A stretch of 64,000 bases of DNA, from positions 1,047-65,046 of IMG/VR virus record IMGVR_UViG_3300021502_000037. The stretch is one strand, 5' to 3'. Below, piece by piece: positions 17,701-64,000 of the stretch (position 1 is the stretch's first letter; each line of letters begins with the position of its first letter). Source of the DNA: a virus (taxonomy: Duplodnaviria; Caudoviricetes). Under the pieces are notes generated by a model. The model was given only the letters and a program-made list of their open reading frames with translations. It ran no database searches and was not told the DNA's origin. Made by a program: the position numbers and the translations under genes.

Positions 17701-20700
17701 AAAAAATATTATTATAATATTGATAATAATGGGTGGCATGAAGGTCAAACGATATCAGTTGCTGGGGATGTAAGTCAAACGATACCAGATACTGGGGCAA
17801 TAAATTATGGTAAAGGAAAAAATTGGAAAAAAAATGTTTTAACATTTGACAACCCTGTTTACGGTAAATATTTTGAAATTAGTCTATATTCTCCATCTAT
17901 AATCTCAGAGATACAATTATTAAAAGCATATTATATTAATGATATACTACCAATTAAGAATATACTTATAGGAAGAAGTGACTCTGTAATAGACAATAGA
18001 GTACCTCTTAATTATAATAATATTAATTATGATGTAGAAGGTGAGGTTGTATTTCATGAAGAATTTAATAGTACTGTTTTATCTTCAAAATGGGAAAAAA
18101 ACAAACCTCATGGTTGGATGTATTGCGGCATGGGTGAAGAAGAAAAAGATACCTTTATGTTAATTCCAACAACATCTGGGTTACGTTTTAATAAAATGTC
18201 TACCGCTTGTCATTTTCCAAATATATCTATGGACTTAGATTATAAATTAAAAGGTTTTGAATTAATTATAAAACAAACCCCGGCCCCATATTTTGAGACA
18301 TATAAATCTGATAAACATGTTTATCACCGTGATTACGTAGTAGATATCTCTAAATTTCATATATACTTACTCAATAGTGAAAATGAAATATTATATCAAT
18401 ATAGACACGATTCTGAAGTAGCTGAATCGTATTATAGCCATTCTTTTAAGGTTATAGGGTCACACTCAATTACTAAATCCGAATTAACTACAGTAAGTAG
18501 AATTGAAATTGGGGTTGATGGCAATAGTAATCATTATGGAGATCGAGACACATTTAATTTGGCGATAGAAGAGGTAGAAGCCTTTAGCCCCACTGTATTA
18601 GATAGCCCTCTAGTATATACAGAACGCGCGTTACAATCAGTTACAATAAAAACTGTCAAAGAGATGGATATACACACAAAATTATATATTGAATTCGAAC
18701 AAGAAGAATATTTAACCAAATTAGAATTATATGGAGATGCTTTTTGGTTAGGATTGGGTGACACAGGTATAACACCAAGTACTTTACCAATTGTTTATGT
18801 AGGAAAAAGTACAGATGGATATATATATGATCAATTGGCTTCTACAAATACCACAGACACTGTGTGTGGTGGGTTTAGTTATTTAACTTATAAAGAATGT
18901 ATGTTAATGCGTTTACGAAAGACACTCACTAACGATGGAATTAAATATGTAGAAATGCTTACTTCAGTACCAGAGGGGGAAGAGAAGATATTTAATTATA
19001 AAAGATATATAGATAGTTACCCATCTAATCAAGGTACTTATCCAACTACAGCTAATAAAGAGTTTATGTACTCTTATAGAACACGCGATATAGAATTTAA
19101 ATATGATATAACTTTAGGGGAGTATATTAGTTGTGATTTTGGGTCTAATGGACCTTATAAATTTGATGAAATAGAAATATTAGCTTCTAATAGTACCTAC
19201 CCTATGTTAATTACTATATATGGAAGAAACTCAGTTGACGACGAGTACGAAGAAGTTTATACCATATCGGATGTTTTAAATTACTCTGGTACAACTCTTA
19301 ATTATAGGATAATAGATGGTCTTGGGAGTACTTATTATAATAGAATTTTAATAACCGATTTACCAGATAAAGGATATAGATGTTACAAGTTTGTATTTGG
19401 TAGAGATAGTTGGAAGATCCATATTAATCATATCGATTTTAAAAAGAATATACAGTTAAATGGGGGGTTGGTTTTAACTTTAGAGGATTGTATAGAAGAG
19501 ATAGCTATTGATATAGAAAAAATACATAACATAGGGTGGTTTTCAAATAAAGTATTTTATGGTACAGATACCAGTATTATATGGGGATATAATAGGTACG
19601 CGAATAGTATTAGTAATGCCCCTTTTATAGATATACATTCTGATAATGTGTTTTTTTCTAGTTCAATAGTTGAATGCCCTGATGAGGTAATGTGGGGGTC
19701 TCAAATAGATTTTACAGATGATTTTTCTGACGGTATTTATGATGACAAATGGGAGTTTATACGATTAAATAATGAAATGTTGTTAGAAGAAGATAATAAA
19801 TTAAGTGTGTACTCATATGGCAACAATACTCCAAATTGGTATGGCCCTAAAATAACTAAGTACTTTGATAAAACTGTAGCTATTGATTTTATTATTAATT
19901 TAATGTGTAAAGCCCCTGATATTTCTAAAGGAAGAACTACAATAGATTTTAAAGGTGCTTATGGAGAATCAATTTTAAAATTATCCATAGAAATTATAGA
20001 TGATGAAGTAACAAGTTCTATATATGCATTAGAAGAAATAATATATTTTGATACTACTAGTATTAGTAAATCTTCTTTAAATAGTATTCGTATTGTGCGA
20101 GAGATAAAACCTACAAAAATAAAGTATTTTGTTTCTAATACACTTATATATGAAGTTGAAACCCTTGTAGAAGAGAAGGTTTATTCTGTAGATATTATAT
20201 TTGAAAAATATGAAAATGCTATAGTACTTAATGAACATTACATAGAGTTTGTATCCATAGTCATAAATTCTATTTCAGATAATGTTAGATGGGTAAAATT
20301 ATTGTTAGAACATAACGATATAAATTTTTATGGTACTTATATACAAAATTTATGTATGTACCCAACTACGTCAAAGGTATTAACATCAGAAGGCGAGTAT
20401 AACTGTGAATGGGAGCCTTTTTTATATGATATTACTACTTTAATGCAAGAAACCTCTAATGTAGCAAGGCATGCTATTATTACTACAAACTATCCTGACG
20501 AATTTAATTATAAAGCTATAAATGTAGTCAATGGTGATAATACAGGAAAAGATGGTTGTTGGGAATTTGATATATTATCAGATGGGAGTTTTCCATACAT
20601 AGAAATTGATCTTGGTGATACATATATTATTGATGAGATAAAGTTGTATCATGGAAGACGTAGTGCAGACACTGATTATATAAATAAGATTACCCCTAAA

Positions 20701-28539: not shown

Positions 28540-28820
28540 TTAATATGGCTATTAGAAACGCACTAATCATAGAACGGGATGACCTTTTGTGCGATCATTT
28601 ATTAATTGCACGTAGAGTTTATGGAAGTAAAATTAAATATAGAAAACATGCTTTTATATCTTTAGATAGTTTTGGAATAAAATTTAAATTTACGATGGAA
28701 ATAAATTAATATGGCTATTAGAAACGCACTAATCATAGAACGGGATGACCTTTTGTGCGATCATTTATTAATTGCACGTAGAGTTTATGGAAGTAAAATT
28801 AAATATAGAAAACATGCTTT
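28540..28820 (+). repeat. 115-bp exact direct repeat (28540-28654 and 28706-28820)
   Basis: Both copies read ttaatatggctattagaaacg...aaacatgcttt, offset by 166 bp. Confidence 0.95.
28545..28709 (+). CDS. 54-aa small protein, paralogue of the next gene (below the ORF-track cutoff)
   Basis: SD AAGGAG, then MAIRNALIIERDDLLCDHLLIARRVYGSKIKYRKHAFISLDSFGIKFKFTMEIN*. Confidence 0.55.
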   Translation: MAIRNALIIERDDLLCDHLLIARRVYGSKIKYRKHAFISLDSFGIKFKFTMEIN

Positions 28821-36210: not shown

Positions 36211-36672
36211 ATGGATAATGATGTGTTGTTATTTCGATATGTAAAACCAAACACAGGTTTGATTGAAGAGGCCATGTCTTATGATGTTAGAAAGCTAGAA
36301 CAAACAACCGGAGAAGTATTAAGTAAGTATGCTTTAGTTTTATCGCAATATAATGTATTTTTTACTTCGGAACGGAATAAAATAAAGGTAACAATTCATA
36401 AAGCAAAAAGGTTACTAGATGGTATAATCAATACCATTTTAACAAAGGAAGATGTAAAAAAGCATGGTACAAAAACTGCAGCAGTCAATTATATTGTAAG
36501 TAGCAGTGCAAAATACAATGGGATTAGCGAGGACATTAATGCAGCCAATGAAGAGTTACTTTATATAGAAGGTATAGATAAAACAGTATCTGATTTGGTT
36601 GCTACTATAAAAAGAGAGTTGACTAGAAGAGAAAATGAGTTGCATGCTACAAGGTTTGAAAGAAAAATTTAA
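36211..36672 (+). CDS. Helical protein, possibly UvsY-like recombination mediator
   Basis: 153-aa coiled-coil-like ORF near recA. The function is only a guess. Confidence 0.35.
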   Translation: MDNDVLLFRYVKPNTGLIEEAMSYDVRKLEQTTGEVLSKYALVLSQYNVFFTSERNKIKVTIHKAKRLLDGIINTILTKEDVKKHGTKTAAVNYIVSSSAKYNGISEDINAANEELLYIEGIDKTVSDLVATIKRELTRRENELHATRFERKI

Positions 36673-36680
36673 AGAAATAC

Positions 36681-36708
36681 TTGACAAAGTTGTTTAGATG
36701 ATTATATT
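36681..36708 (+). promoter_or_regulatory. sigma70-like promoter
   Basis: TTGACA-N16-TATATT. Confidence 0.75.
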
Positions 36709-36778
36709 TATATAAAATTAATAGTATAATAGTTTAGCGGTTTATCAACTATAACTTGTGATTATCGGAAAGGAAATT

Positions 36779-37724: not shown

Positions 37725-39033
37725 GTGTCTAAAAAATTAACAATAAAAGAGTTTATTAAAAAAGCTGAAAGTGTACATAATTTTCGATACGATTATTCAA
37801 AATCAATATATGTGAATAATCGTATCAAAATTGAAATTATATGTCCAAAGCATGGCAGTTTTTGGCAAAATCCAAATGGTCATATGAGAGGAAGTTGGTG
37901 TAAAAAATGCTCTAATAGCTATAGAAGTAAAAAAAGAAGAACGCCATTGCGAAGATTTATAGAAAGAGCAAATCAAATTCATAATAGTAAGTATGACTAT
38001 TCGTTGGTAAAATATGTAAACAATCCCCACTAAAGTAAAAATTATATGCCCTATTCATGGTATGTTTGAGCAAAAACCAAATAATCATTTACAAGGGCGT
38101 AATTGTTTGAGGTGGGGATATGAAATAAACAGTCAAAATTTTAGAAAGACACTTAAGCAATTTATTTTTGATGCTATATTAGTTCATGGTGATAAATACA
38201 ATTATTTAATGGTTGAATATATAAATGATGGAACAAAAGTTAAAATTATATGTCCAAAACACGGAGAATTTTACCAAACACCAACCCATCATCTTGGAGG
38301 CCAAGGTTGTGCTAAATGTTCCCACCATGTTTCAAAAGGTGAGACAGAGGTATCAAATTGGTTAAAATCCTTTAATTTAAATGTAGAAATAAGTAATAGA
38401 ACTATTATTAAACCAAAAGAAATTGATATTTATTTACCAGATTTCAAACTTGGTATAGAGTATAATGGAACATATTGGCATACAGAAAAATACCGAAAAA
38501 ATATAAATTATCACAGAGATAAAACATTTAAAGCAAGAGAAGCTGGTGTTCATTTGATGCAGTTTTGGGACATTGAGTGGGATGAAAAACAAGATATAGT
38601 AAAGTCAATTATTCTTAGAAAAATTGGTAAAAGTAAATATAATTATTACGCTAAAAATCTTATGGTAAAAGAAGTAAAACCAAGTGAATCGAGAGTCTTT
38701 TGTGAAGTTAATAGTATTCATGGGTTTCGTGATGGTAGAGTTCACAACGGCCTTTACTTTGGTGATGAGTTAATGGTATTAATTGTTGTGGGTAATGGTG
38801 GAGAAATGATTCGATTTGTAGTAAAAAATTACTGTTCTGTAAAAAATAGTTTTTCTAAATTATTAAAGTATTCTGATATAAAATATTCTTTTGTTGATCA
38901 AAGAGTGTTTAATGGTTTAGAGTATTATAAAAATGGTTTCAAACTTTTATATATCACGAAACCAAATTATTTTTATATAAACAAGCATTATAAATTATAT
39001 GATTGTGGGTATATGAAATTTAAAAAAAAGTAA
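37725..39033 (+). pseudogene. Frameshifted Zn-ribbon-repeat/Vsr-like homing endonuclease with degenerate Hef-like C-terminus
   Basis: Repeats F...A..VH..(K/R)YDYS...Y.N...K..IICP.HG.F.Q continue across a +1 shift at about 38025 (TKVKIICPIHGMFEQ in the next frame). Contains EIDIYLP...IEYNG.YWH. Confidence 0.75.
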
Positions 39034-39201
39034 CTTGACAAAATTATTTATATGATTATATTTATATAAGGTTAATAACATTATAAATCACCGGCGCAGT
39101 TTTTGGCGTCCGGTGTATTTGATGGCTATTAAAAATAAAATTTGACAATATTAAAATAAGTATTATGTTAATATATAAAAGAAGTAAGCAAAGGTAGTTC
39201 A
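39031..39201 (+). repeat. Dual-promoter/hairpin cassette, copy 1 (copy 2 at 50028-50201)
   Basis: TTGACA at 39035 and 39142, GC-rich hairpin at 39085-39120, ends in agcaaaggtagttca. Confidence 0.85.
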
Positions 39202-44805: not shown

Positions 44806-45660
44806 TTGGGTAAAAAATGGACTATAGAGATTGTTAGAGAGGGATTTGAAGCTGATGGGTATGAATTGTTGACTATTGAGTATATTAATAATCATCAAAA
44901 ATTGGATTATATTTGCCCGAAGCAACGTAAAGGGCAGGTTACTTGGCATCATTGGCTGATGGGTAGTAGGTGTCCTTGTTGTTCTGGGATTCTTAAAAAA
45001 ACTATAGATTTTATCCGCTCCGAATTTGAAAAAGAAGGCTACAAACTTTTGACTAAAAAATATATAAATAATTCACAAAAATTGGATTATATTTGTCCAA
45101 AAGGACATAGATATTATATAACATGGGGAAATTGGCAGCAGGGCAGACGTTGTCCTTGTTTTGCTGGTAGACCGCCAATTAATATAGATTCAGTTAAATT
45201 TGAATTTAATAAAAGAGGGTATGAATTATTGTCAAAAAAATATATTAATGCCCGTTCAAATTTAAAATTTAAATGTAAACGGGGACACATTGGTAAAATG
45301 TCTTGGGACAATTTTAGTCATGGATCAATTTGTTTAAAATGTGCAATAGAAAATAATACTGGTCCAGGCCACCCAAGTTGGAAAGGTGGTATTTCAAAAG
45401 AACCTTATTGTAAAGATTGGGATAAAGATTTGAAAGAATTTGTAAAAGAACGTGATGGTTACAAATGTATGAACCCCGACTGTTGGGAAAAAGACAATGT
45501 GTTGCATGTTCATCATATTAATTATAATAAAAAGTCTTGCGGGGCTGAAAATCTTACTACAGTTTGCAGGTCATGCAATGGAAGAGCAAATAAAGATAGA
45601 GAATGGCACGAGGCGTGGTATAAAGCAATTTTACATAAAAGATACAATTACATTTATTAA
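44806..45660 (+). CDS. HNH homing endonuclease with Zn-ribbon repeats
   Basis: Three F.kEGY.LL..Y.N...L.Y.C..GH repeats and the same HNH tail as the 4262 ORF. Confidence 0.85.
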   Translation: MGKKWTIEIVREGFEADGYELLTIEYINNHQKLDYICPKQRKGQVTWHHWLMGSRCPCCSGILKKTIDFIRSEFEKEGYKLLTKKYINNSQKLDYICPKGHRYYITWGNWQQGRRCPCFAGRPPINIDSVKFEFNKRGYELLSKKYINARSNLKFKCKRGHIGKMSWDNFSHGSICLKCAIENNTGPGHPSWKGGISKEPYCKDWDKDLKEFVKERDGYKCMNPDCWEKDNVLHVHHINYNKKSCGAENLTTVCRSCNGRANKDREWHEAWYKAILHKRYNYIY

Positions 45661-48148: not shown

Positions 48149-48409
48149 ATTTAAATAATAAGAAAACCACTAAGTCTTTAGCTTAGTGGTTGAATTATTA
48201 CAAATTAAAACTTGACAAAAGCTTTTACACGTATTATATTATAATTAACATTAATCCTGCTATAAATGAAAACCAAGTTTATAGTAGGATTAATACATTT
48301 TTAAACATATTAACCGCAGGGACTGCGGGGTTAGCCTACCAAATTTAGATGGTAACAAACATCTAATTACTTAGGAAACCCGTAAATCTTTAGCTTAGGG
48401 GTAGTTCAT
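48149..48409 (+). mobile_element. Non-autonomous IS200/IS605-type element (261 bp; left end, promoter, omegaRNA-like 3' part, right end)
   Basis: Target TTAT at 48145-48148. Left end AAAA + CCACTAAG-TCTTTAG-CTTAGTGG hairpin. tnpB-end-like ACCGCAGGGACTGCGGGGTTAGCC. Right end GAAA + hairpin + TAGTTCAT. Confidence 0.8.
48212..48240 (+). promoter_or_regulatory. sigma70-like promoter inside the non-autonomous element
   Basis: TTGACA-N17-TATATT. Confidence 0.7.
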
Positions 48410-49979
48410 GGATGTAAAAATATTAGAAGAAGCAGGTTATAAACACGCATTATATGGTATATCTTTGAGTTATAATAAAGATATAGAAAATATGGAGAAA
48501 GTTTCTAAATCTTTGTGTAAATTAGATGGTGGCCATAATAAATTTTTAGAAAGTATTGTGGTATGGTTAGAAATAAATGCTGCTAGATATTGGTGGCAAG
48601 AATTTGATACATATAGAGTTGGTATCACCAAACAATCTGAGTGTTTTGATGATAAAACTGAAATCTTAACTTTAGATGGTTGGAAATATTTTAAAAATTT
48701 AAAAAATGAAGATTTATTTTGTACGATGAATATAAAAAATAGAAATATAGAATATCAGAAAGCAACTAATTATATAGAGAATGATTTTAATGGGGAGGTA
48801 CTTTCTATTAATGGTAAATCAATAGATTTAATTGTAACTAAAAATCATAATATGGTAATAAAATGTAGACGAAGTGAAAATTTGAGAATTATACCCGCTG
48901 ATAAATTTACACATTCACATGGTATTCCAAAGAAAGCAATATGGAAGGGTAAAGAGGTGTCAGAGTTTATACTACCTATGGTACAGAAAGAAACGAAATA
49001 CTCTACATTTTACCCAGAAAAAAAAATTAATATGGATTTATGGTTAAAATTTTTTGGTTTTTGGTTGGCAGAAGGATGTGTTTTTTGTAATCGTAATAAA
49101 AAAAATTACATATCATCCGCTTGTCAAGTTGAGGATAGTAAATATATACCTGAAATAGATGCAATTTTTGATGAATTACCCTTTAAGGTTTATAGATATG
49201 TTGAGAAGAGAAAAGATAAGAAATCAATAATTGTATGGAAAATTTCTAATAAACAGTTATATTTTTATTTATTAGAATATAAAGGAGCATTGAATAAATA
49301 TATAAATAAAGATTTACTTACTTTATCTAAAAGACAATTAAACATTCTTGAAAAATGGTTAATGGTTGGAGATGGTTGTGTTACTTTTAAGCACTATATT
49401 TACATTTCAATTAGTAAAAAATTAATTGATACTGTTCAAGAACTATGGTTAAAATTAGGGTATTCCTCTTCTATTAGAATTCATCGTGAAGCTCAAAATA
49501 ATTGTAAACGTGTTTATTCAATTGCAAGACATAGAACGTCTTATGCATATGCTTTGAAAAATAATATAAAAAAAGTAAATTATAAAGGTAAAATTTATTG
49601 TGTTGAGGTTCCTAATCATATTATTTTAGCTCGTAGAAATGGAAAGATAGTATGGACTGGTAATTCAACAATACATACACTTTTAAAAAGTAGATTAACT
49701 CAAAATAATTTTGAATCTGATATACCAGAAAAATTTTTAAATTATTTAAATACAATTATTACTAATTATCATAATAGTAAGAATAAAAATAAAGCTGAAT
49801 TTACAAAGGAAATAAAAAATATCCTTCCAGAAGGTTTTTTACAGCGAAGAATTGTGTGCACAAATTATAAAGTTTTAAAAAACATGATTAATCAAAGAAA
49901 GAATCATACTTTAGGTGGTTGGAAAATGTTTATAAATCATTTAAAAAATAATTTAGAACATTCAGATTTAATATTTTAA
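48408..49979 (+). CDS. thyX: ThyX-like flavin-dependent thymidylate synthase homologue containing an intein
   Basis: GGHNKFLE, RYWWQEFDTYR, SE|STIH, LPEGF.Q.R....NYK.L.N...QRK.H...W. Spliced product about 182 aa. Confidence 0.7.
   Translation: MDVKILEEAGYKHALYGISLSYNKDIENMEKVSKSLCKLDGGHNKFLESIVVWLEINAARYWWQEFDTYRVGITKQSECFDDKTEILTLDGWKYFKNLKNEDLFCTMNIKNRNIEYQKATNYIENDFNGEVLSINGKSIDLIVTKNHNMVIKCRRSENLRIIPADKFTHSHGIPKKAIWKGKEVSEFILPMVQKETKYSTFYPEKKINMDLWLKFFGFWLAEGCVFCNRNKKNYISSACQVEDSKYIPEIDAIFDELPFKVYRYVEKRKDKKSIIVWKISNKQLYFYLLEYKGALNKYINKDLLTLSKRQLNILEKWLMVGDGCVTFKHYIYISISKKLIDTVQELWLKLGYSSSIRIHREAQNNCKRVYSIARHRTSYAYALKNNIKKVNYKGKIYCVEVPNHIILARRNGKIVWTGNSTIHTLLKSRLTQNNFESDIPEKFLNYLNTIITNYHNSKNKNKAEFTKEIKNILPEGFLQRRIVCTNYKVLKNMINQRKNHTLGGWKMFINHLKNNLEHSDLIF
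48642..49664 (+). mobile_element. Intein with LAGLIDADG endonuclease (341 aa)
   Basis: Starts CFDD, ends WTGN|S. Blocks FFGFWLAEG and LMVGDG. Confidence 0.92.
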
Positions 49980-50025
49980 TTTAATTAGCGGTTGATTAAA
50001 TAACCAATCGCTAATTAAATTAAAA
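49974..50025. terminator. Long inverted repeat (21-bp stem, 10-nt loop) after thyX; terminator or processing hairpin
   Basis: ttttaatttaattagcggttg ... caatcgctaattaaattaaaa. Confidence 0.6.
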
Positions 50026-50027
50026 AA

Positions 50028-50201
50028 TAACTTGACAAAATTATTTAGATGATTATATTTATAGAAGGTTAATAACACCCTAAATCACCGGCGCCGGCTG
50101 TTTGGCGTCCGGTGTATTTGATTGTTATGAAAAATAAAACTTGACATTAATAAACTAAGCATTATATTATTAGATAAGGTTAATTAAGCAAAGGTAGTTC
50201 A
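50028..50201 (+). repeat. Dual-promoter/hairpin cassette, copy 2
   Basis: TTGACA at 50032 and 50141, hairpin at 50082-50119, continues into the tRNA-like RNA. Confidence 0.85.
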
Positions 50202-50261
50202 ATGTAGAATATTCGGTGACCAGCCGGAAGATGCAGGTGCAATTCCTGCCCTTTTGCTCCA
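50188..50261 (+). tRNA. Non-canonical tRNA-Gly(ACC)-like RNA
   Basis: Cloverleaf GCAAAGG/CTTTTGC, U73, encoded CCA. Anticodon arm TTCGG-TGACCAG-CCGGA; T arm GCAGG-TGCAATT-CCTGC. Confidence 0.7.
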
Positions 50262-50277
50262 AATAAAATAAAATAAA

Positions 50278-50964
50278 ATGATTAAACATAAAGATTTAAT
50301 GGGCAAAACATTCGGGAGATTAAAAGTTATTGGAAAGGAAGGCCCAGCAAAAAATAGAATAATGCAATGGTTATGTGAATGTTCGTGTGGCAATATATTA
50401 ATAGTAAGATCCAATCATCTTATACATGGGCATACAAGAAGTTGTGGATGTTTACAGAAAGAAAAAGTTACGGATGTTTTTATTCCAGATCTTATTGGAA
50501 AAAAATTTGGTAGACTTACAGTGCTGAGTTTAAGTAAAAAAAGAAAAAATAGAGCTGCAGTATGGAGATGTAAATGTGATTGTGGGAATTATACAGAAGT
50601 AATAACATCATGTCTTATAATTGGACATACAAAATCGTGTGGCTGTCTTCAAACAGAATCTTGTTCTGGTGATAATAATTTTAATTGGAGAGATGACACC
50701 TCAAAAGGAATTTATTGTCGAGACTGGACTAATGATTTAAAAGATTGTGTTAAAGAACGTGATGAATATAAATGTTTAAATCCTGATTGTTGGGGTAAAG
50801 ATAAGACATTATCTGTTCATCATATTAATTATAATAAAAAATCTTGTGGTCTAGAAAATCTTATTACAGTTTGCAGATCTTGTAATACTAGAGCAAATAC
50901 AGATAGAGAATGGCACGAGGCTTGGTATAAAGCAATTTTATATAGTAGATATGGTTATATTTAA
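50278..50964 (+). CDS. HNH homing endonuclease with FGRL.V...W.C.C.CG repeats
   Basis: Two DL.GK.FGRL.V...W.C.C.CG...SCGCLQ repeats plus the same HNH tail as 4262 and 44806. Confidence 0.85.
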   Translation: MIKHKDLMGKTFGRLKVIGKEGPAKNRIMQWLCECSCGNILIVRSNHLIHGHTRSCGCLQKEKVTDVFIPDLIGKKFGRLTVLSLSKKRKNRAAVWRCKCDCGNYTEVITSCLIIGHTKSCGCLQTESCSGDNNFNWRDDTSKGIYCRDWTNDLKDCVKERDEYKCLNPDCWGKDKTLSVHHINYNKKSCGLENLITVCRSCNTRANTDREWHEAWYKAILYSRYGYI

Positions 50965-51010: not shown

Positions 51011-51084
51011 GCAAAAGTAGTTTAATGTAAAATATCTGATGACCAATCAGAAGATGTTGGTTCAATTCCTGTCCTTTTGCTCCA
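51011..51084 (+). tRNA. Second tRNA-Gly(ACC)-like RNA (weaker T stem)
   Basis: GCAAAAG/CTTTTGC, U73, CCA. Anticodon arm TCTGA-TGACCAA-TCAGA, with compensatory changes relative to copy 1. Confidence 0.62.
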
Positions 51085-51120
51085 AATAATTAATTTTAAA
51101 TGTTAAGGAAAAATTATGAA

Positions 51121-51600
51121 CAGCTTTAGAGCCGCAATCCCAGAAAGGTCTTCGGGGTTAGGCTCTTGACAAATGAAATTTAATACTTATTATTAATTTA
51201 AAGGGAAAATTTATGATAACAAGAGAATTAAAATTACAATTACAATTAAAAACTAAGCAGAAAAACTTATGCAATTTAATAGGTATTTCTCAATTAAGAC
51301 AATTTATTTCCTACAAGAGTGACATACACGGTAGAAAATGTGTTTTAGTTGATTCAAAATATACCACCATGACTTGTTCAATTTGTGGAGTCAAAACTGG
51401 TCCTACAAGTTTAAACGGGCTTGCTGTAAGAAATTGGGAGTGTAGTGCTTGTGGAGCACAACATGACCGCGACATTAATGCGGCTAATGTAATTCTCAAT
51501 TTTGGGCTGGGATACAGCCTCGATAACGCTGCAACCCACGCCTGTAAAGGGCCGGGGATTTGTAAACTGGAATCGTCGGGCGGTGCCCGATGAGTATCAA
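51121..51600 (+). mobile_element. IS200/IS605-family element (480 bp) with internally deleted tnpB, inserted 3' of ATGAA
   Basis: Left end has CAAT at +15..18 before a hairpin. Right end GAAT + CGTCGGGC-GGT-GCCCGATG hairpin + AGTATCAA. No target duplication. Confidence 0.88.
51213..51593 (+). pseudogene. tnpB: Internally deleted TnpB
   Basis: N-terminal MITRELKL fused to the C-terminal YK...VD..YTT.TCSICG...W.CSACG..HDRDINAA. RuvC-I and RuvC-II are missing. Confidence 0.85.
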
Positions 51601-53773
51601 AATAAAAGGTATAAAATATGTGGGGCCACTAACAGATGGTTCTGGTTATGGAAAAGCTTGTAGAGAAAATATAAAAGCACTATTATCTGTTGGAGTAAAT
51701 TTAACATTATCTCCTATATCTTTTGAAACAATTAGACCAGATTTAGGTGGTGATGGTGAAATATTAAAAAAATTAATAAATAAATCTATAGATTATAATA
51801 TAGTTATTATTCATACAACACCTGAATTTTGGGAAAAATATAGAGAAGATGGTAAATTAAATTTGGGATACACTATATGGGAAACTACAAAATTACATCC
51901 GGCGTGGAAAGATTATATTAATAATAATGTTGAAAAAGTTTTGGTAGGTTGTGAATGGAATGTAGATGTCTTTAAAGAAAGCGGAATAACATTACCAATA
52001 GAAGTTATTCCACATCCAATAAATATACCAGATGAAAATGTAAAAGCATTCAATATAAATGGTGTTTCTGATGATACTTTTACATTCTACAGTATTTTTC
52101 AATGGTGTTACGATGATAAAACTAGGGTATTAACTGAAGACGGATTTAAATATTTTAAAGATTTAACATATGATGATAAGTTGGCTACATTAAATTTAAA
52201 TACGGAGGAATTAGAATATCATAAACCAGATAATCTTGTAAGTTTCGATAGAAAAGATAAAATGATATCTATACAAGGTAATTTATTTGACGTTTGTGTT
52301 AATCCAGAACATAAAATGGTTGTTAGAAATGCGGACAGTAGTGATTGGTTTTTAAAACCTTTAAAAGATATGTTAAGTAGTAATAAAAAAAATGAATTAA
52401 TTGTTAGCGATAAATATAGAGCAAAGAAAAATTGTAAATGGTTTGGAGAAGAATGTGAAAACTTTTATTTACCTAAATATAAGCATGGTAAAGATGAAAA
52501 ATTAGATGAATTTACCATAATTTTAATGGACGACATGTTGGAATTTATAGGTTGGTATATTTCAGAAGGTTCCACCTATAAGGGTGAAAGTGGTTATGTT
52601 ACTACAATTACACAATCTAAAAGTGCTGTATATATAAAAGAAATTACAGAATGTATAAAACGTATGGGATTTACTCCTTTTAAAAGGGATAAGGATATTA
52701 GATTTAATTCTAAAGACATGTATTATTTGTTAAAAAATTTAGGTACATCTCAATATAAATTTATTTTTAATTGGGCAAAAAAATTAAGTTCAAGACAAAT
52801 AATTATTCTATTAACATCATTATTTAAAGGCGATGGTAGTTTATATGAGAATGGGGATTGGGTAAAGTATACTACAACGTCCAAAAAATTAGCAGAAGAT
52901 GTTCAGGAATGTTTGTTAAAAGTAGGAATGTCTGGAGCAATTTCTATATCAGATCCAACAAAAAAGAAACCTGGAACAATAGATGGAAGAGAAATTAGAG
53001 GAAAATTACTACAATATACTGTATCTGTGAATAGAAAATTTAATGAGCCGAGTATGTATTATGCAAATGTAAAAGAAATTAATTATGATGGTAAAATATA
53101 TTGTGCGGAAATAAAAAATCATACTATGTTAGTTGAACGTAATGGTAAAATATTATTTTCTGGGAATACAGAAAGGAAAAATCCTGTAGCAGCTATAAAA
53201 GCCTATTGGTATGCTTTTCAAAATGATGAGAATGTAGCATTAGTATTAAAAACATATAGAAGTGACTATTCTGAACAAGAAAAAGAAGCAATTAGAAGGA
53301 CACTTAATAGGTTAAAAGATATTATGCCTATGGATACTTATCCAAAAATATATTTAATTCCAGATTTATTGACAGATAATGAAATAAATGGTTTACATAA
53401 ACGTGGGGATTGTTATTTAAGTACAGACCGTGGTGAAGGTTTTGGTTTAAGTGGTGCTGCTGCTGGTTCTTTTGGCAATCCAATAATGGTAACAGGTTTT
53501 GGCGGGGCTTTAGAATATGCTAAAGAAGATAATAGTTATTTAATTGATTATCAGTTAACACCGGTTTTCGGACAGCCATGGAGTCCGTGGTATAAGGGTA
53601 CTCAACTATGGGCGGAAACAAGTGTATTACACACATCTCAGTTATTAAGACATGTTTATGAAAATCAAGATGAAGCAAAACAAAAAGGTTTAAAGTTACA
53701 AAAATTTATAAAAGATAATTTATCTTATGAAACTATAGGTAATAAAATAATTAAAGAAATTGAGATGATATAG
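51590..53773 (+). CDS. GT4-family glycosyltransferase containing an intein
   Basis: SGYG, YTIWET, FQW|TERKN, RGEGFGL motifs. The start MSI is supplied by the IS right end. Confidence 0.88.
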   Translation: MSIKIKGIKYVGPLTDGSGYGKACRENIKALLSVGVNLTLSPISFETIRPDLGGDGEILKKLINKSIDYNIVIIHTTPEFWEKYREDGKLNLGYTIWETTKLHPAWKDYINNNVEKVLVGCEWNVDVFKESGITLPIEVIPHPINIPDENVKAFNINGVSDDTFTFYSIFQWCYDDKTRVLTEDGFKYFKDLTYDDKLATLNLNTEELEYHKPDNLVSFDRKDKMISIQGNLFDVCVNPEHKMVVRNADSSDWFLKPLKDMLSSNKKNELIVSDKYRAKKNCKWFGEECENFYLPKYKHGKDEKLDEFTIILMDDMLEFIGWYISEGSTYKGESGYVTTITQSKSAVYIKEITECIKRMGFTPFKRDKDIRFNSKDMYYLLKNLGTSQYKFIFNWAKKLSSRQIIILLTSLFKGDGSLYENGDWVKYTTTSKKLAEDVQECLLKVGMSGAISISDPTKKKPGTIDGREIRGKLLQYTVSVNRKFNEPSMYYANVKEINYDGKIYCAEIKNHTMLVERNGKILFSGNTERKNPVAAIKAYWYAFQNDENVALVLKTYRSDYSEQEKEAIRRTLNRLKDIMPMDTYPKIYLIPDLLTDNEINGLHKRGDCYLSTDRGEGFGLSGAAAGSFGNPIMVTGFGGALEYAKEDNSYLIDYQLTPVFGQPWSPWYKGTQLWAETSVLHTSQLLRHVYENQDEAKQKGLKLQKFIKDNLSYETIGNKIIKEIEMI
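52106..53167 (+). mobile_element. Intein with LAGLIDADG endonuclease (354 aa)
   Basis: Starts CYDD, ends FSGN|T. Blocks FIGWYISEG and LFKGDG. Confidence 0.92.
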
Positions 53774-53776: not shown

Positions 53777-55126
53777 GTGTTTAAAAAATTAAATATTGAA
53801 GATATAAGAAAAGAATTTAAAGATAAAGGTAAAACTTTAATTACTGAAATTTATATTAATAGTAAGCAATCATTAGATTATATTTGTAAAAATGGACATA
53901 AACATCATATGAGAATTGACCATTTACGAAGTGGTGTTGATTGCCCTTATTGTAATGGTATGGCCAAAAAATCAATAGAAAAAATAAAACCGTATTTTTC
54001 TATAGAAGGGTATGAATTGCTTTCAGATGCATACGAAAATGCTTTTGGAGAATTAATTTGTAAATGTAAATTAGGTCATGTATTTAAAACTACTTGGCAT
54101 AGTTGGAGCTCTAGTAAAAACAGGTGTCCAATATGTAATAAAGGTGTTAGATTTGATTTTGATATAGTTAAAAAAGATATTGAAGATGGTGGTTATGAAT
54201 TAATAACTACTGAATATATTAATTCAGCACAAATTTTACATACTAAATGTCCCAAAAATCATGATTACTTTGTTAATTTTGGAAATTGGAAGCATAAAAA
54301 ATCTAGATGTCCGCGTTGTTCAGGTAATGGTGCTTCTTCTCCAGAATATATTATAAGGGAATTTTTAGATATAAATAATATTGATTATTTAATTAATGAT
54401 AAAAAAATTATTGCTCCATATGAATTAGATATAGTTATCCAAGATAAAAAGATTGCTATAGAATATTGTGGTTTATATTGGCATTCTGAAAGTAAAGGAA
54501 AATGTAATGATTATCATATACACAAATATAATTTATGTAAAGAAAAAGGTTATAGGCTAATAACAATTTTTGAAGATGAGTATATATTTAATTATGATGT
54601 AGTTAAATACAATCTTAATTCTATTTTGAAATTGAATAATATTAAAACAAAACAATTAACTAATTATAATATTATAGAAGTATCAAATATAGAAGCGAAA
54701 GTGTTTTTTAATAAAAATTCATTTATAGGTTGTTATGCAGATACAGATATAAAGTTAGGTATATTTATAAACGGTAATTTGGTGGGTGTTGGTTTATTTT
54801 CTTATCAAAACTCTGATAATTATTTATTAATTGGGTTTTGTTCTAACATGGTATATAGAAAAAGAGATATTTTATTTAAAATTATAGAGTATTTTAAAAT
54901 TAATTATAGGTGGAGAACTATTTCTGTAGAAGTTGATAAAAGATGGTATAGCGGTGACATATTTTACAGATTAGGATTTGATTTTATAAAAATTATTAAA
55001 CCTATTAGTTGGAATTTTAAATCGAAGAAAAGAGTAACTAATAAAATAAAAGATATAAATTATGATAAGATTTGGGATTGTGGTAAAAATAAATATATGT
55101 TAAAAAATAGAATGGAGTTAACATGA
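53777..55126 (+). CDS. Zn-ribbon-repeat/Vsr-like homing endonuclease with Hef-like C-terminus
   Basis: Three C..(G/N)H...CP.C repeats, ELDI...IAIEYCGLYWHS, IFEDE, VDKRW, IWDCG. Confidence 0.75.
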   Translation: MFKKLNIEDIRKEFKDKGKTLITEIYINSKQSLDYICKNGHKHHMRIDHLRSGVDCPYCNGMAKKSIEKIKPYFSIEGYELLSDAYENAFGELICKCKLGHVFKTTWHSWSSSKNRCPICNKGVRFDFDIVKKDIEDGGYELITTEYINSAQILHTKCPKNHDYFVNFGNWKHKKSRCPRCSGNGASSPEYIIREFLDINNIDYLINDKKIIAPYELDIVIQDKKIAIEYCGLYWHSESKGKCNDYHIHKYNLCKEKGYRLITIFEDEYIFNYDVVKYNLNSILKLNNIKTKQLTNYNIIEVSNIEAKVFFNKNSFIGCYADTDIKLGIFINGNLVGVGLFSYQNSDNYLLIGFCSNMVYRKRDILFKIIEYFKINYRWRTISVEVDKRWYSGDIFYRLGFDFIKIIKPISWNFKSKKRVTNKIKDINYDKIWDCGKNKYMLKNRMELT

Positions 55127-56288: not shown

Positions 56289-57293
56289 ATGAATTTAGTT
56301 TTAGTAGGGTTAGGTTATTGGGGTCCAAATTTACTACGGACATTTAATAGTTTGGGATCTGTGTACGCTGCAGTAGATAATAATATTGATAGACTCAATA
56401 AGTTTAGTAGTGACCCTGTTTATAATGGTATCAAATTTGAAGAAAGTTGGAATAAATTTCTTACAGATGATAAAGTCGATGGGTTTATTATAGCAACACC
56501 ACCTAATACTCATTATGAGATAGCTATGGCTGCTATATTAAGCAACAAACATATATTTATAGAGAAACCCATGGCTCTAGATCCAGAAGAAGCAGCTACT
56601 ATAGTAGAAGCCGCCGCTTTAAGGGATTTGGTAGTTATGGTAGGACATATATTTTTATACAGCCCAGAAATTATTAAACTTAAAGGAGTAATTACTTCCA
56701 AGGAGTTTGGTGATGTACAATATATTTACACACACCGTCTTAATTTGGGTAAAGTTCAGAGACCAGTTAATGTAGTAGATGATTTGGCTCCTCACGATAT
56801 AAGTATTTTAGATTACCTGTTGGGGGAGCAATGTACAGCTGCACAGGTTACAGCCGAGTCACATGTTATCGACACTGAGGATGTAGCTTTTGTTAATTTA
56901 AAGTATAATGATGTTCTTTGTCATTTACATCTAAGTTGGTTGGACCCGTTGAAGATTAGAAATATTGTTGTTGTCGGCACAAGGCAGATGGTGGTGTGTG
57001 ATTCTATGAATAAGACAATTAATATTTATAATACAGGTATAGATGTTGCTAAAGCTGAAAGTGAGATGAGTGAGTCATACTCAAATTATCTTATGACTTA
57101 CAGGTATGGTGATACTCTTATTCCACATATAGAAAATTTTGAGCCTATGAAAACCGAATGTAAAGACTTCATTGATTGTATAGAAAGCGGTAATGTGCCT
57201 ATATCCTCAGGTAGAGTTGGCCAATCAGTAGTTAATACTTTAAATATTATTCGTAAATCTTTGTGTAGTGGTGGTGGGTGGGTGTCCTTATGA
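56289..57293 (+). CDS. Gfo/Idh/MocA NAD-dependent oxidoreductase (sugar-nucleotide dehydrogenase-like)
   Basis: VGLGYWG, IATPPNTH, IEKP, VGH, DLAPHDI. Confidence 0.9.
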   Translation: MNLVLVGLGYWGPNLLRTFNSLGSVYAAVDNNIDRLNKFSSDPVYNGIKFEESWNKFLTDDKVDGFIIATPPNTHYEIAMAAILSNKHIFIEKPMALDPEEAATIVEAAALRDLVVMVGHIFLYSPEIIKLKGVITSKEFGDVQYIYTHRLNLGKVQRPVNVVDDLAPHDISILDYLLGEQCTAAQVTAESHVIDTEDVAFVNLKYNDVLCHLHLSWLDPLKIRNIVVVGTRQMVVCDSMNKTINIYNTGIDVAKAESEMSESYSNYLMTYRYGDTLIPHIENFEPMKTECKDFIDCIESGNVPISSGRVGQSVVNTLNIIRKSLCSGGGWVSL

Positions 57294-58117
57294 TCTCAGC
57301 ACACCTCATAACACACCAATGTGTTATTTTAGACTATTGTCTTGAAGCAACTATACGTTGTATGATGGATTTGTGTGATGACATTTATATAAATGATGGA
57401 CAGTCTGATGATGGTACACAAGATATACTTTATACTTTGCGGAACGAATATGGAAAAGACCGTGTAAAAATCTTTGTGCGTGATTGGCAACATAATAGGA
57501 GTATGTGGGCGAACGAAAAAAATTTTATACTTGACAAAATACCAAATGATACTTATATTTTAGCTATTGACGCTGACGAAGTTATACATGAAGATGAAAT
57601 GGGGTTAATTAAGACGGCGGTAAAATTAAAAACTAACTCAATAGCATTTGACGTTATTCATTTTTATGGAAGGCCTACACACCATATAGTAGGCCCAGCG
57701 TGGTATAAACAACATACAAGGTTGTGGCATCGTTCTACAGGGATTAGATTGGTGCACAGAGAACGCGGTTGTGCCGATGATGTTTTGTGGCCGGATGGTT
57801 ATCCAGCTCATATGGGAAGGTTTTTAAATTGTGGAGCAAAGCTTTATCATTACGGCAATTGTAGAGATCCAAAGGCTTTAGGGATGAAAGCTAAAAAAGC
57901 AGATGATCTTTACCAATATAGTACTGAGTATAGTGGTGGTAAATTGGCAAAACCAAGATCATTTACATATGCTTTTGACTCTACTGGAGCAATACCCTTC
58001 ACCGGTTCACAACCTAAGTATATAAAAGAGTGGTATGAGGCACATAAGAGCCAACAAACAAGTTATGATGTCAGAGATGGAAAGCAAAACAAACTTTGGT
58101 GTTTTGAGGAGAATTAA
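57278..58117 (+). CDS. GT2-family glycosyltransferase
   Basis: NDGQSDDGT, IDADE, YHYG. Confidence 0.85.
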   Translation: MGVLMISAHLITHQCVILDYCLEATIRCMMDLCDDIYINDGQSDDGTQDILYTLRNEYGKDRVKIFVRDWQHNRSMWANEKNFILDKIPNDTYILAIDADEVIHEDEMGLIKTAVKLKTNSIAFDVIHFYGRPTHHIVGPAWYKQHTRLWHRSTGIRLVHRERGCADDVLWPDGYPAHMGRFLNCGAKLYHYGNCRDPKALGMKAKKADDLYQYSTEYSGGKLAKPRSFTYAFDSTGAIPFTGSQPKYIKEWYEAHKSQQTSYDVRDGKQNKLWCFEEN

Positions 58118-58122
58118 ATGAA

Positions 58123-58187
58123 CAGTTTTAGAACCACAGTCACAAAATGGTGCTTAGTGTTGTTTGGGGGTACTCGATGAGTATCAA
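58123..58187 (+). mobile_element. 65-bp minimal derivative of the ATGAA-targeting IS200/IS605 element
   Basis: ATGAA|CAGTTTTAGAACCACAGT...GGTACTCGATGAGTATCAA matches both ends of the 51121-51600 element. Confidence 0.78.
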
Positions 58188-59070
58188 GTTGGCTGTAGGT
58201 ATACCGGTCTATAATGATAGTGTATTTATAGAACGTAGTGTCCAGAATTGTATAGATATGGGGTATGATTACGTTGTGTATTTAGACGACGGTAGCACAG
58301 ACGATTCGTTTGATAGGTTGGTAGAGCTTACTAGAGGCCATTCACATATAGACATATTGAGGAGAAAAGAGAACAGTGTGTCAAGCAATAGTGGTAACCG
58401 TTGGGAAATAGTTGCTGAACAGTGTAGGACAGTTAATCCTGATTGGATAATGACAAGAGCAACTGATGAGGTACTATCTCACAATGCAAAGGGTGTTTTA
58501 CGAGAAAAAATAGACGCCTTAAATTCCTTTGGTGTTAATATGGTAGTTTTTAACTATATACATCTATGGAGGTCTGAGTGGTGGTATAGAGTGGATAGTT
58601 TTTGGGGGGGCCACCACACAATATGTATGTGGAAGAATGATACTGGTTGGAAGTTTAAATTCGGTAGCGGAATACATTTAGGAGCACATCGTCCTAATAG
58701 TTTAGAGGTTAAGAATATTGTACACAATATTAATGGTTCTGACTCGAAAGATATTGTTGTGGTTCATTATGGCATGTCTTCACATGATTTGTTGGCACGT
58801 AAGTTGGATTATCAGATAAGTACTTCTCTTAAGATAGGAAAGAGAGCGGCTGGAATGTCTATAACTATCCCACATCCTTCTGGTTGGCAACATATTAATG
58901 GGTATAAAGCTGCTTACGAAGAAAATGTAAATTTAGAAAAAGTTAATCAGAAATGGTTTAGTGAACCTATTCCAGATGTCCCAGCCCCAGAAATAAAATC
59001 TCTTTATAAAGTTGTTAATAAACATAGCGTTCGTATTGCAGATGAATATGCAAAAATTTATGGGAGGTAA
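58177..59070 (+). CDS. GT2-family glycosyltransferase
   Basis: IPVYN, LDDGSTD, TDE, HYG. The start MSI comes from the element. Confidence 0.85.
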   Translation: MSIKLAVGIPVYNDSVFIERSVQNCIDMGYDYVVYLDDGSTDDSFDRLVELTRGHSHIDILRRKENSVSSNSGNRWEIVAEQCRTVNPDWIMTRATDEVLSHNAKGVLREKIDALNSFGVNMVVFNYIHLWRSEWWYRVDSFWGGHHTICMWKNDTGWKFKFGSGIHLGAHRPNSLEVKNIVHNINGSDSKDIVVVHYGMSSHDLLARKLDYQISTSLKIGKRAAGMSITIPHPSGWQHINGYKAAYEENVNLEKVNQKWFSEPIPDVPAPEIKSLYKVVNKHSVRIADEYAKIYGR

Positions 59071-59072
59071 AT

Positions 59073-59684
59073 ATCAAACCTTATTTTATACACCCAACAG
59101 CTGTTGTGGAAACTGTAAAGATAGGAGCAGGTACTTATATAGGGCCTTACACTTATATATCAGATAGGGTAACTATAGGTAAGAATTGTAAGATATACAA
59201 TGCCTCAATAGGCCTCTCTGGTGAACACCCAAACGCCCATGAAGATTGTGGTGGCGTGGTAGTTATTGGTAACAATGTAGAAATTCGTGAATATGTAACC
59301 ATTAATGCCCCGATATTTGGAGAAGTTACTAAAGTAGATGACGGTTGTTATCTTATGGCTAAGTCACATGTAGGGCATGATGCACATCTAAAAGAGCGTG
59401 TTGTGTTACATACAGGTTCTGTTATAGGTGGTCATTCTGTAATAGGAAAGTATTGCTATATGGGACTTAATTGTTCGACTCACCCTTACGCTGTTTTAGG
59501 TGACTATTGTATAGTAGGAGCCAACGGTGTATACAAAGGGGAATCCCCATCAGCTATAGTGTGGGCTGGTGTCCCTTGTAAACCATTGAAAACAAATGTT
59601 GTTGGTATTGATAGGCATGCCAAGAAGGAAGAAAAATTAGTACTTATTGAAGCTTGTCAAAGGTTTCTTGGGGGGAACATTTGA
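59073..59684 (+). CDS. Left-handed beta-helix acyltransferase (LpxA-like)
   Basis: Hexapeptide repeats, IGNNVEIREYVTI, HVGHD, WAGVP. The frame extends upstream through FIHPTAVV to an ATC located 5 nt after GGAGG. Confidence 0.82.
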   Translation: MKPYFIHPTAVVETVKIGAGTYIGPYTYISDRVTIGKNCKIYNASIGLSGEHPNAHEDCGGVVVIGNNVEIREYVTINAPIFGEVTKVDDGCYLMAKSHVGHDAHLKERVVLHTGSVIGGHSVIGKYCYMGLNCSTHPYAVLGDYCIVGANGVYKGESPSAIVWAGVPCKPLKTNVVGIDRHAKKEEKLVLIEACQRFLGGNI

Positions 59685-59685
59685 T

Positions 59686-60424
59686 ATGCAGCGATTAATA
59701 TTAACTGGCCCATCTATATGTGGAATAACTATTACAAGTAGTGTATTAACCACTCATGCTGATATATGTGTGACTAATGAGTTAAGAACTTATATGCATG
59801 CACCTAATAATGACCATGCTATATCTATTTATAATAATATAAAAATAAGAATCTTAATTTTTTCAATCTATCGGCGGATATTGATTTTGAATTTATAAAG
59901 TATTTGGATTTATTACCGTCAAAGAAAAGAATATTGAAATTAGAAGAGGTGATTTTTAATAATAGTTATAGTTTTTTTGGAGATAAGGGTATTTTTAATC
60001 CAGGAGCTAAGCTATTACACGAAAACAATTTAGATTTTATATTAATAATTATATATAGAGACCCTAGAGATGTGGTCAGTAGTGTGGTACGCCAATATCC
60101 AAGTTCTCATTTTGGTTACAATAGTAATGATCCTAATGTAATATATAGAATTTGGTCAGAATGGTTAACAGAGATGATAACTATAGGCAATGATTATGCT
60201 ACTAAAAGTTTAATTATTCGATTTGAAGACTATATAGAAAATCCTGGTCTTAATGGTACCAAGATAAATTCTTTTTAGGAATTTCAGGGATGGGTCTAAT
60301 AGAAAAACAGTTAATTAACTACAAAACCGCCCACAAAGTGTATTATAAACATCTTTGTGCTGATTGGCAAAAAACTTTTTCAAAAAAGGCTATAAGATTG
60401 ATGAAAGAATTACATTATACATAA
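59686..60424 (+). pseudogene. Frameshifted sulfotransferase
   Basis: Degenerate PAPS loop (LTGPSICGIT), L..H..I...NE, FGDK, YRDPRDVVSS, RFED...NP and terminal LMKEL.Y are spread over three frames. Confidence 0.7.
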
Positions 60425-62596: not shown

Positions 62597-63878
62597 TGTA
62601 TCTATCATAAAAACAAAAGATGAATATCCTAATTCTATATTAGAAGATAATACACACATCCATAAAGCAATGCTTAAAGGTTTTGAACTTTTAGGCTATG
62701 ATGTATCTAATCCTTTAGGACATATAGTAAAACCAGGAAACCGTGTATTTATAAAGCCTAATTTTGTTGTTGATGTTTATAGGGCTTCCTGTTCAATGGT
62801 TGGTGATATATATTCAGTTATAACACACCCTTCAGTTATCAAAGCCGTAGTTGATTTTGTAGCTATAGCTTTAAATGGTAAAGGGGAAATTATAGTCGGT
62901 GATTGCCCTTCCATTGACGCTGACTTTGAAAATCTTATGTGTGTAACTGGATTAGAGGCGTTAATGGGTAGGTATGATGTCCCTATAAAATTTTTTGATC
63001 TTCGTAATGAGTGGTGTGATGATCTTAAATATTATGGTTTTAAATCTAAAATGAAAAAACTTTCTGGCGATCCTGAAGGTTCTTCTATCTTAAATCTTGG
63101 TAAAAGATCTCTTTTTTATAGAGATAATCCTTTACTTTTTAGAGGTATATACACAAAGAGATGGGGTACTATAAAACACCACTTGTTTAATAAGCATGAA
63201 TATAGTGTTTCTAACACTATGTTAAATTCTGATGTGTTTATATCAATTCCAAAACTTAAAACTCACCGTAAAGTGGCAGCCACTTTAAATATAAAGGGGT
63301 TAGTTGGGATAAATACTGATAAGAACTTTTTAATACACTGGAAGATAGGATGCCCGTCGTTAGGTGGGGATGAGTGGTATAACCCAAGTGGTTTACGTGG
63401 ATACATGTCTTTAATTTTTAAACATATAATAAACGATTTAACACCGGAAAGTCTTTATTTTCTATTAAGAACCAAAACAAATTTAAGTATGCTCAATACA
63501 GAGGTATCGCCGTGTGGTCACAAACACAGAGGTTCTGGAGAAAAAAATGAAACTTGTTGGAAGATGGCGGCTGATTTATATAAAGTATTTATTGAGGATA
63601 GAAAATCTACCACAAAGTTTTTTTCAATAGTTGATGGTATCACTTCTGGTGAGGGTAATGGGCCGTTTTGTCCTACTAGCCGACAAGACGGCGTGTTGGT
63701 GATGGGAGAAGACTTGGTAGAGGTTGATTGTGCTTCTGTAAAGTTGATGGGATTTGCTCCAGCAGAGGTTGGATATTTGAAGTATTTCCTTAATGGTAAT
63801 TATGACGTAGATACTTCTTATTATCCTAAGAAAGTTGAACTTAATTTTAAAGCACCAGAAGGGTGGAAAAGTTTATGA
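62589..63878 (+). CDS. DUF362 family protein
   Basis: VFIKPN.V, THP, ISIPKLKTH, T..IK..VG, IVDGI..GEG.GP. Confidence 0.8.
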   Translation: MSNVSIIKTKDEYPNSILEDNTHIHKAMLKGFELLGYDVSNPLGHIVKPGNRVFIKPNFVVDVYRASCSMVGDIYSVITHPSVIKAVVDFVAIALNGKGEIIVGDCPSIDADFENLMCVTGLEALMGRYDVPIKFFDLRNEWCDDLKYYGFKSKMKKLSGDPEGSSILNLGKRSLFYRDNPLLFRGIYTKRWGTIKHHLFNKHEYSVSNTMLNSDVFISIPKLKTHRKVAATLNIKGLVGINTDKNFLIHWKIGCPSLGGDEWYNPSGLRGYMSLIFKHIINDLTPESLYFLLRTKTNLSMLNTEVSPCGHKHRGSGEKNETCWKMAADLYKVFIEDRKSTTKFFSIVDGITSGEGNGPFCPTSRQDGVLVMGEDLVEVDCASVKLMGFAPAEVGYLKYFLNGNYDVDTSYYPKKVELNFKAPEGWKSL

Positions 63879-63879
63879 A

Positions 63880-64000
63880 CAGCTTTAGAGCCGCAATCCC
63901 AGAAGGGTCTTCGGGGTTAGGCTCTTGACAAATGAAATTTAATGTTTATTATTAATTTAAAAGGAAAATTTATGATAACAAGAGAACTAAAATTACAATT
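63880..64000 (+). mobile_element. Third copy (left end) of the ATGAA-targeting IS200/IS605 element; tnpB begins at 63972 and runs off the window
   Basis: Near-identical to 51121-51241. Preceded by ATGAA whose TGA is the DUF362 stop codon. Confidence 0.88.

Follow-up and report, generated by a model that had tools for sequence, protein, structure and literature searches.

IS605-type transposons combine a Y1 (HUH) transposase (TnpA) with the accessory protein TnpB (RuvC/zinc-finger, Cas12f-like), and IS608 and ISDra2 are the models in which they have been studied. Elements of the IS200/IS605 family have subterminal hairpins rather than terminal inverted repeats, and insert, without target duplication, 3' of a fixed site of 4-5 nt, with another 4-nt site at the right end. 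Because there is almost no non-coding space within lytic phage genomes, transposons are expected to be rare there. Among the derivatives of the family are palindrome-associated transposable elements (PATEs), which are MITE-like, short and protein-less and consist of a left end joined to a right end. IStrons, which are chimeras of a group I intron with an IS605 or IS607 element, limit the harm of landing in a gene by splicing; one study presents this splicing as limiting fitness cost, 'unlike canonical' IS605/IS607 elements (10.1101/2023.11.20.567912). Termination-reinitiation, by which translation of one ORF feeds the next, operates at ATGA overlaps and downstream of leader ORFs, where the ORFs are co-directional, stop and start share the ATGA, and the SD lies within the upstream ORF; when Huber et al. 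2019 tested 14 pairs with such overlaps, they found strict coupling in 13 (PMC6728339).

Here a 65-bp sequence at the start of a phage glycosyltransferase (GT) gene is compared with these systems. The reading favored, with moderate rather than high confidence, is that this sequence is the fossil of an IS200/IS605 element lying on the start of the gene, that the ATG within the element's right end serves as the new start, and that ribosomes would be relayed to it from the old start by termination and reinitiation. The group of elements to which it belongs shares with other IS200/IS605 elements the Y1 transposase and TnpB, the hairpins, the manner of insertion and a right-end site (TCAA); it differs in that its target, (A/T)TGAA, contains a start codon, in that the tip of its right end supplies a replacement start in frame, and in that its tnpB stop overlaps this replacement start within the right-end hairpin. 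Some of its smallest members (L166, L170 and L200) fit the description of PATEs, whereas the 65-bp copy has lost both hairpins, is hence no substrate for TnpA, and would be retained for the ATG on which the gene depends. IStrons belong to the same superfamily and likewise limit harm, but they mend the transcript, whereas here an Rfam search of the window found two tRNAs only, with no intron or known RNA at the elements, and repair would occur at the translation start. Unlike coupled gene pairs, the upstream ORF here is no gene, but transposon-derived filler between the old and new start codons. Within the literature consulted, including PMC13565253 and 10.1101/2023.11.20.567912, no IS200/IS605 element was found to be credited with restoring a start codon or with coupling translation downstream; this is a real variant of a known transposon family, one that has apparently not been described previously.

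The window, that is, the whole stretch of DNA analyzed, comprises 64,000 of the 65,046 bases of its source contig, the completeness of which is about 22% (CheckV). It is AT-rich, with genes on the + strand arranged head to tail and tightly packed, and four DNA sequencing runs yield contigs identical to it, two of which span the 65-bp sequence. The surroundings of this sequence form a sugar-modification cluster, somewhat GC-richer than the window, with a GFO/IDH/MocA oxidoreductase, two GT2 glycosyltransferases, a hexapeptide transferase and a DUF362 protein as members. Elsewhere in the window there are two tandem giant ORFs (8002-14724, 2240 aa; 14740-23673, 2977 aa), a perfect direct repeat of 115 nt (28540-28654 and 28706-28820, spacing 166 nt), tRNA genes at 50190-50254 and 51011-51080, and promoter-like modules (TTGACA followed by a TATAAT-like motif; repeats D7, D13 and D17) at 36671-36743, 39025-39178 and 50022-50177, located before tRNAs and other genes. 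Repeat families D1-D5 and D11 mark paralogous ORFs at 4262-4960, 44806-45660, 50278-50964 and 53777-55126, which look like free-standing homing endonucleases because the ORF at 50278 has an HNH domain. The proteins of 48408-49979 and 51590-53773 both have LAGLIDADG domains and a common intein-like N-terminal block (repeat D10: 48641 and 52105), and these are probably intein-containing genes, the second being GT4-like. At the site itself, the features are:

57278-58117, + strand: upstream GT2 gene, whose TAA (58115-58117) lies immediately before ATG 58118 (ORF list, Pfam)
58106-58111, + strand: GAGGAG, the SD-like site of the original start, 6 nt 5' of ATG 58118
58118-58122, + strand: ATGAA, both original GT start codon and transposon target site (left-end junctions, N-termini of GT homologs)
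58118-58180, + strand: 20-codon ORF, MNSFRTTVTKWCLVLFGGTR and a stop, ending in the ATGA overlap (ORF list, translation)
58123-58187, + strand: the remnant, 65 bp (CAGT...TCAA), directly 3' of ATGAA
58123-58164, + strand: left-end-derived part (5' 42 nt), hairpin decayed, CAAT changed to CAGT (alignment, fold)
58165-58187, + strand: right-end-derived part (3' 23 nt), the former hairpin now TTTGGGGGTACTCG, then the conserved tip ATGAGTATCAA (alignment)
58166-58170, + strand: GGGGG, SD-like, 6 nt 5' of ATG 58177, in the former 5' arm of the right-end hairpin
58177-59070, + strand: GT2 glycosyltransferase gene, starting at the right-end-supplied ATG (MSIK...) (PF00535, PF13704)

An earlier note on this DNA had described a 20-codon ORF whose stop overlaps a second start codon, and this is indeed present: the TGA at 58178-58180 overlaps the ATG at 58177-58179, both ORFs are co-directional, and the ORF that opens at 58177 has 297 codons and matches PF00535 at 2.4e-5.

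The lineage is identified through full-length relatives in other phage contigs, which carry an IS200-type Y1 transposase and a 384-aa TnpB and thereby place it in IS200/IS605; in one of these (L006), TnpA, encoded on the strand opposite to tnpB, matches PF01797 at 9.5e-30, and TnpB matches PF07282 at 2.4e-20. The ends of intact copies of the family lack terminal inverted repeats and have subterminal hairpins: at the left end a fold of -18.5 to -25.7 kcal/mol, and at the right end a 9-bp stem with a GGU loop (UCGUCGGGC-GGU-GCCCGAUGA) inside which both AUG and UGA lie (local fold -15.8 to -18.5 kcal/mol). CAAT precedes the left-end hairpin, with cleavage after TGAA, while GAAT belongs to the right end, with cleavage after TCAA; this C/G swap on both sides is consistent with guide-to-site pairing of the type known from IS608.

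Copies were sampled as follows. Right ends were gathered with exact patterns, so that the comparison set holds only copies with intact hairpins: 18 of 46 IMG/VR loci were accepted as true copies (at least 17 of 21 further positions identical), a metagenome scan gave 45 loci, and removal of duplicates left 53 distinct right-end copies, the window's two included. When IMG/VR was scanned with a left-end 15-mer, 4 of the 119 matches listed were real left ends (own copies counted). The exact right-end 25-mer had no match in a one-genome-per-species prokaryote collection and is present in phage and metagenome contigs; on this distribution the lineage may be confined to phages. At the 17 loci with a recognizable left end, the junctions (read by eye from printed alignments, several of which displace them by 1-2 nt) are ATGAA in 12, TTGAA in 4 and ATGAG in 1, and at true right ends the flanks diverge immediately 3' of TCAA. 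The family thus inserts 3' of (A/T)TGAA, without target duplication, and its elements end in ATGAGYATCAA. In AT-rich phages (A/T)TGAA is very often a start codon followed by a Lys or Asn codon. Insertions away from starts (L023, L175 and L039) are found either shortly upstream of a stop, within a few codons of it, or in short intergenic stretches, which is where survivorship in a gene-dense genome would be expected to leave them.

ATGAGYATCAA is 6 nt longer than ATGAA, and an insertion 3' of an ATGAA start therefore restores an ATG in frame, with Ser-Ile as an addition to the protein. Besides the GT gene, two gene starts in the window carry the right-end tip, and a third site has a left end:

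51116-51600, + strand: copy A, an ATGAA target (51116-51120) followed by a 480-bp element (51121-51600) (PF07282, 9.9e-21)
63875-64000, + strand: copy B, an ATGAA target over the TGA of the DUF362 gene, a left end (from 63880) and the start of tnpB; it stops at the contig end
41946-41956, + strand: ATGAGTATCAA, the right-end tip alone (11 nt), at the start of a 118-aa zinc-ribbon gene

Copies A and B, the two larger ones, both lie precisely at gene starts and are 95% identical over 133-135 nt. The tnpB of copy A (51213-51593) is internally deleted in frame to 126 codons, with N- and C-terminal pieces that match full TnpB and a Cas12f1-like TNB domain, and its TGA overlaps the ATG at 51590 of a 727-aa intein-bearing gene. 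That protein begins MSIKIKGIKY, as compared with MEIKG or MKIKG in 9 of its top 12 homologs; the zinc-ribbon protein begins MSIKCPKC, as compared with ME- or MN-CPxC in 5 of 5; and the GT protein begins MSIKLAVG, two residues longer than the M-x-I-A-V-G found in 22 of 27 homologs (30-67% identical), which bears out the proposal that the gene had an old start at 58118 and acquired a new, element-supplied one at 58177. Before insertion the GT gene is predicted to have begun ATGAA/G TTG GCT, giving MKLAVG. These protein comparisons show, at the level of predicted N-termini, that the right-end ATG is a new start with added Ser-Ile. One GT homolog, P0012 (52% identity, from a contig of 301,782 bp), begins MSLKIAVG and is itself two residues longer than the other homologs; its MSLK may reflect a footprint that arose in parallel in a second large phage. 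The empty sites were derived at the protein level, from homolog N-termini; blastn of 56289-59700 against GenBank phages gave no match and IMG/VR searches with the GT protein and with P0012 confirmed no relatives, so that neither yielded a DNA-level empty site or an orthologous copy. Across the family, 28 of 47 evaluable distinct copies have 60 or more open codons in the frame set by the right-end ATG, a length attained by the other two frames in 0 of 51 and 4 of 49. Taken together as a lineage, so far seen only in phages, that practices 'start-codon mimicry'--with an (A/T)TGAA target, an ATGAGYATCAA right end, and a tnpB stop that sits on the ATG within a hairpin and so would tie translation of the host gene to the element--the family is put forward at roughly even confidence.

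Turning to the remnant itself, both of its parts align to the ends of this family. When copy A, L193 and L004 serve as references in global alignments, none of 2000 shuffles reaches the score of either the 5' 42 nt against left ends or the 3' 23 nt against right ends; with L185 as reference, 4 of 2000 reach the left-end score and none of 2000 the right-end score. Chance likeness of the 65 bp to transposon ends was ruled out by these shuffle tests, and the identification of the sequence as a minimal IS200/IS605 remnant is upheld. Within the right-end part, 13 nt (CGATGAGTATCAA) are identical to 51588-51600, and blastn of the region against the window returns 51116-51130, 63875-63889 and 51588-51600. 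The 20-codon ORF joins the short frame of the left end to the terminal codons of tnpB; from the target ATG, full copies translate as MNSFRAAIPEGSSGLGS and a stop. The remnant may have been a two-hairpin mini-element formerly; alternatively, it may have formed from a longer copy by deletion in place.

The hairpins have decayed, as had been noted earlier: the left end folds at -5.0 kcal/mol in the remnant versus -18.5 in copy A and -25.7 in L004, the 9-bp stem of the right end is absent, and the RNA fold of 58095-58215 has no significant structure (z = -0.71). The divergence of the remnant is about 20-25%, and no stop has arisen across the 20 codons. The change from CAAT to CAGT, to which attention had also been drawn, is present in the sequence, and CAGT keeps 3 of 4 guide positions, a proportion that does not exceed the overall identity (about 77%). 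Alignment and fold show 58123-58187 to be a fossil, no longer mobile, of an element of the IS200/IS605 family.

The opposite view, that the 65 bp are a PATE-like mini-element that is still mobile and no fossil at all, draws on the 47-bp mini-elements of the same family, in each of which about 22 nt from the left end are joined to the right-end hairpin. These occur in several copies, namely in L166 (6739-6790), in L170 (1098-1262), where two lie in tandem, one of them with a compensatory stem change (TCGGAC/GTCCGA), and in L200 (minus strand, right end finishing at 363 in reverse-complement coordinates); they possibly are still mobile. The 65-bp copy, however, has both hairpins disrupted, and thus lacks the intact hairpins with guide and cleavage sites that TnpA would need to mobilize a PATE; a search of IMG/VR with a combined left-end and right-end mini-element pattern gave no hits, and hence no second mini-element with decayed hairpins, and the window contains no further copy; the 65-kb contig to which the window belongs, itself about 22% of the genome, yielded no TnpA; and in the four metagenome runs there was no presence/absence variation, site variant or alternative joint at the remnant. 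Continued mobility of this copy is accordingly regarded as exceedingly improbable.

Decay of such an insertion can go further than it has at the GT gene. The tip ATGAGTATCAA has three exact matches in the window versus 0.11 expected, and none of 100 shuffles gives three or more; one-mismatch variants of this 11-mer add four hits, which is at chance level (7 in total versus 3.57 expected), and none of these lies at a gene start. At 41946 the tip directly follows the gene's own SD, AGGGGA, with no other element sequence and no relay ORF. The simplest reading is that this is probably a 6-bp transposon footprint (Ser-Ile added); one possible origin is a deletion between the two ATGA repeats found on either side of every insertion of this kind. 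Lengths of 480, 65 and 6 bp would thus form a series of decay within the window, in which the 65-bp copy is intermediate. The earlier note had called that copy the end state of domestication, and on neither count does this description hold: the gene at 41946 keeps merely the 11-nt right-end tip without a relay ORF, 5 of 5 of its homologs being two residues shorter, and 'domestication' is too strong a word for a remnant that represents damage limitation rather than a new function.

How then is the GT gene translated? Under the favored reading, the transposon landed 3' of the ATGAA with which the gene originally started; ribosomes would still load at the original GAGGAG and ATG 58118, translate the 20-codon ORF, stop at the UGA overlapping AUG 58177, and restart there, aided by the GGGGG 6 nt upstream. 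The GAGGAG has a duplex energy of -9.3 kcal/mol (top 1.7% of 3000 random window positions) and the GGGGG one of -9.7 kcal/mol (top 1.2%), energies computed with a generic anti-SD motif. Since the original SD and ATG are intact, the 20-codon mini-ORF is almost certainly translated; that termination at the ATGA feeds initiation at 58177 is probable.

The GT gene might instead start at ATG 58147, giving a protein of 307 aa with a 10-residue extension through the remnant and rendering the ATGA overlap irrelevant. This codon is in frame with 58177 without an intervening stop, and a database protein (P0001) has been called at 307 aa; yet there is no SD-like site upstream (+0.2 kcal/mol), and none of 27 homologs has anything corresponding to the extension MVLSVVWGYS; 22 of them begin one residue before the K/R position. 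Initiation there is very improbable, and the public gene-caller start, which falls inside the remnant, is probably a mis-call.

A weightier alternative accepts the same fossil but takes the 20-codon ORF to be inherited debris: the GT would be initiated directly at ATG 58177 from GGGGG, and translation of the mini-ORF would be irrelevant or mildly inhibitory. By itself the ORF says little against this. An open run of 19 codons appears in a fraction of 0.24 among 20,000 shuffles, and among random 57-nt windows drawn from this stretch the fraction is 0.30-0.38; the frame adds a factor of 1/3, so that the coincidence amounts to about 1/3 if the open frames were inherited and to about 0.08-0.13 if the sequence were random. 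Given open-frame chance multiplied by 1/3, the single ORF is not significant alone, and its billing as the strongest internal evidence for coupling cannot be sustained; what support there is comes from the family. Direct initiation is favored further by the GGGGG, which with its 6-nt spacer is as SD-like as the best sites of this phage, by the destruction in this copy of the hairpin in which the AUG of intact copies is hidden, and by the footprint at 41946, where a gene works without a relay once a normal SD adjoins the ATG. For the same reasons--loss of the AUG-burying hairpin and gain of GGGGG--the claim that only the relay function has been retained goes too far.

What speaks against direct initiation is, first, that a strong SD and ATG 58118 remain intact 59 nt upstream, so that ribosomes would cross the site anyway; second, that the 20 codons have acquired no stop despite the divergence given above; and third, the behavior of the rest of the family. 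In all 53 copies the tnpB frame ends in ...ESSGGAR and a TGA that lies over the right-end ATG, though this motif was enforced by the search pattern. Of the truncated copies, 20 are evaluable on both sides. The ORF from start to TGA is kept in 16 of the 16 that precede an ORF (copy A, L205, L012, L013/L030, L019, L033, L037, L166, L170, L184, L186, L191, L192, L193, L200 and the window mini-element), as compared with 2 of the 4 without a following ORF (kept in L004 and L173, lost in L024 and L195), for a Fisher probability, computed by hand, of about 0.03. Six independent internal deletions of tnpB, with differing break points, are in frame without exception. Among nine short remnants, the nearest upstream WTGAA or ATGAC is in frame with the TGA in eight (L033 is without such a site), and these eight measure 44, 47, 47, 47, 47, 65, 128 and 131 bp, all of them 2 modulo 3; mini-element length modulo 3 had been set beforehand as a test of coupling, and this outcome favors it. 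At the 1/3 expected per independent event, such frame retention is far from chance, with the qualification that a single mobile mini-element may have given rise to the 47-bp elements in L166, L170 and L200, which would then not be independent events.

Selection for a translation relay is supported by these patterns for the family as a whole. In intact copies the right-end hairpin would hide the new start in the mRNA unless a ribosome comes from upstream, so that translation from upstream, whether of tnpB or of a mini-ORF, is probably needed to open it. In the 65-bp copy, where the hairpin is gone, the relay probably adds to GT expression without fully controlling it, and this copy may be partly independent of the relay. 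Hence the view that coupling is selected stands family-wide, on the difference between truncated copies with and without a following ORF, and is weaker for the 65-bp copy itself, given the ORF coincidence, the hairpin loss and the GGGGG. Initiation from GGGGG with no contribution from the mini-ORF is a live alternative, though a rather unlikely one; preference is given, as stated at the outset, to a fossil whose right-end ATG is reached through a termination-reinitiation relay.

The family seems to answer the scarcity of space within phage genomes by landing on start codons and returning both a start codon and a ribosome relay. If start-codon mimicry is true, it would be the translational counterpart of IStron splicing, allowing low-cost residence in gene-dense phage genomes; moreover, the TnpB guide would then correspond to the first codons of the host gene, so that the element could home to gene starts. 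A practical caution concerns gene callers, by which what is probably a wrong start (58147) was chosen here. If confirmed, these observations would provide a natural series--full element, truncated element, mini-remnant and 6-bp footprint--for the study of how transposon scars are resolved, and would account for the N-terminal 'MSIK/MSIN' tags on unrelated phage proteins. More generally, they would add, beside IStron splicing, a second strategy of harmless insertion for TnpB-bearing transposons, one that acts at the level of translation.
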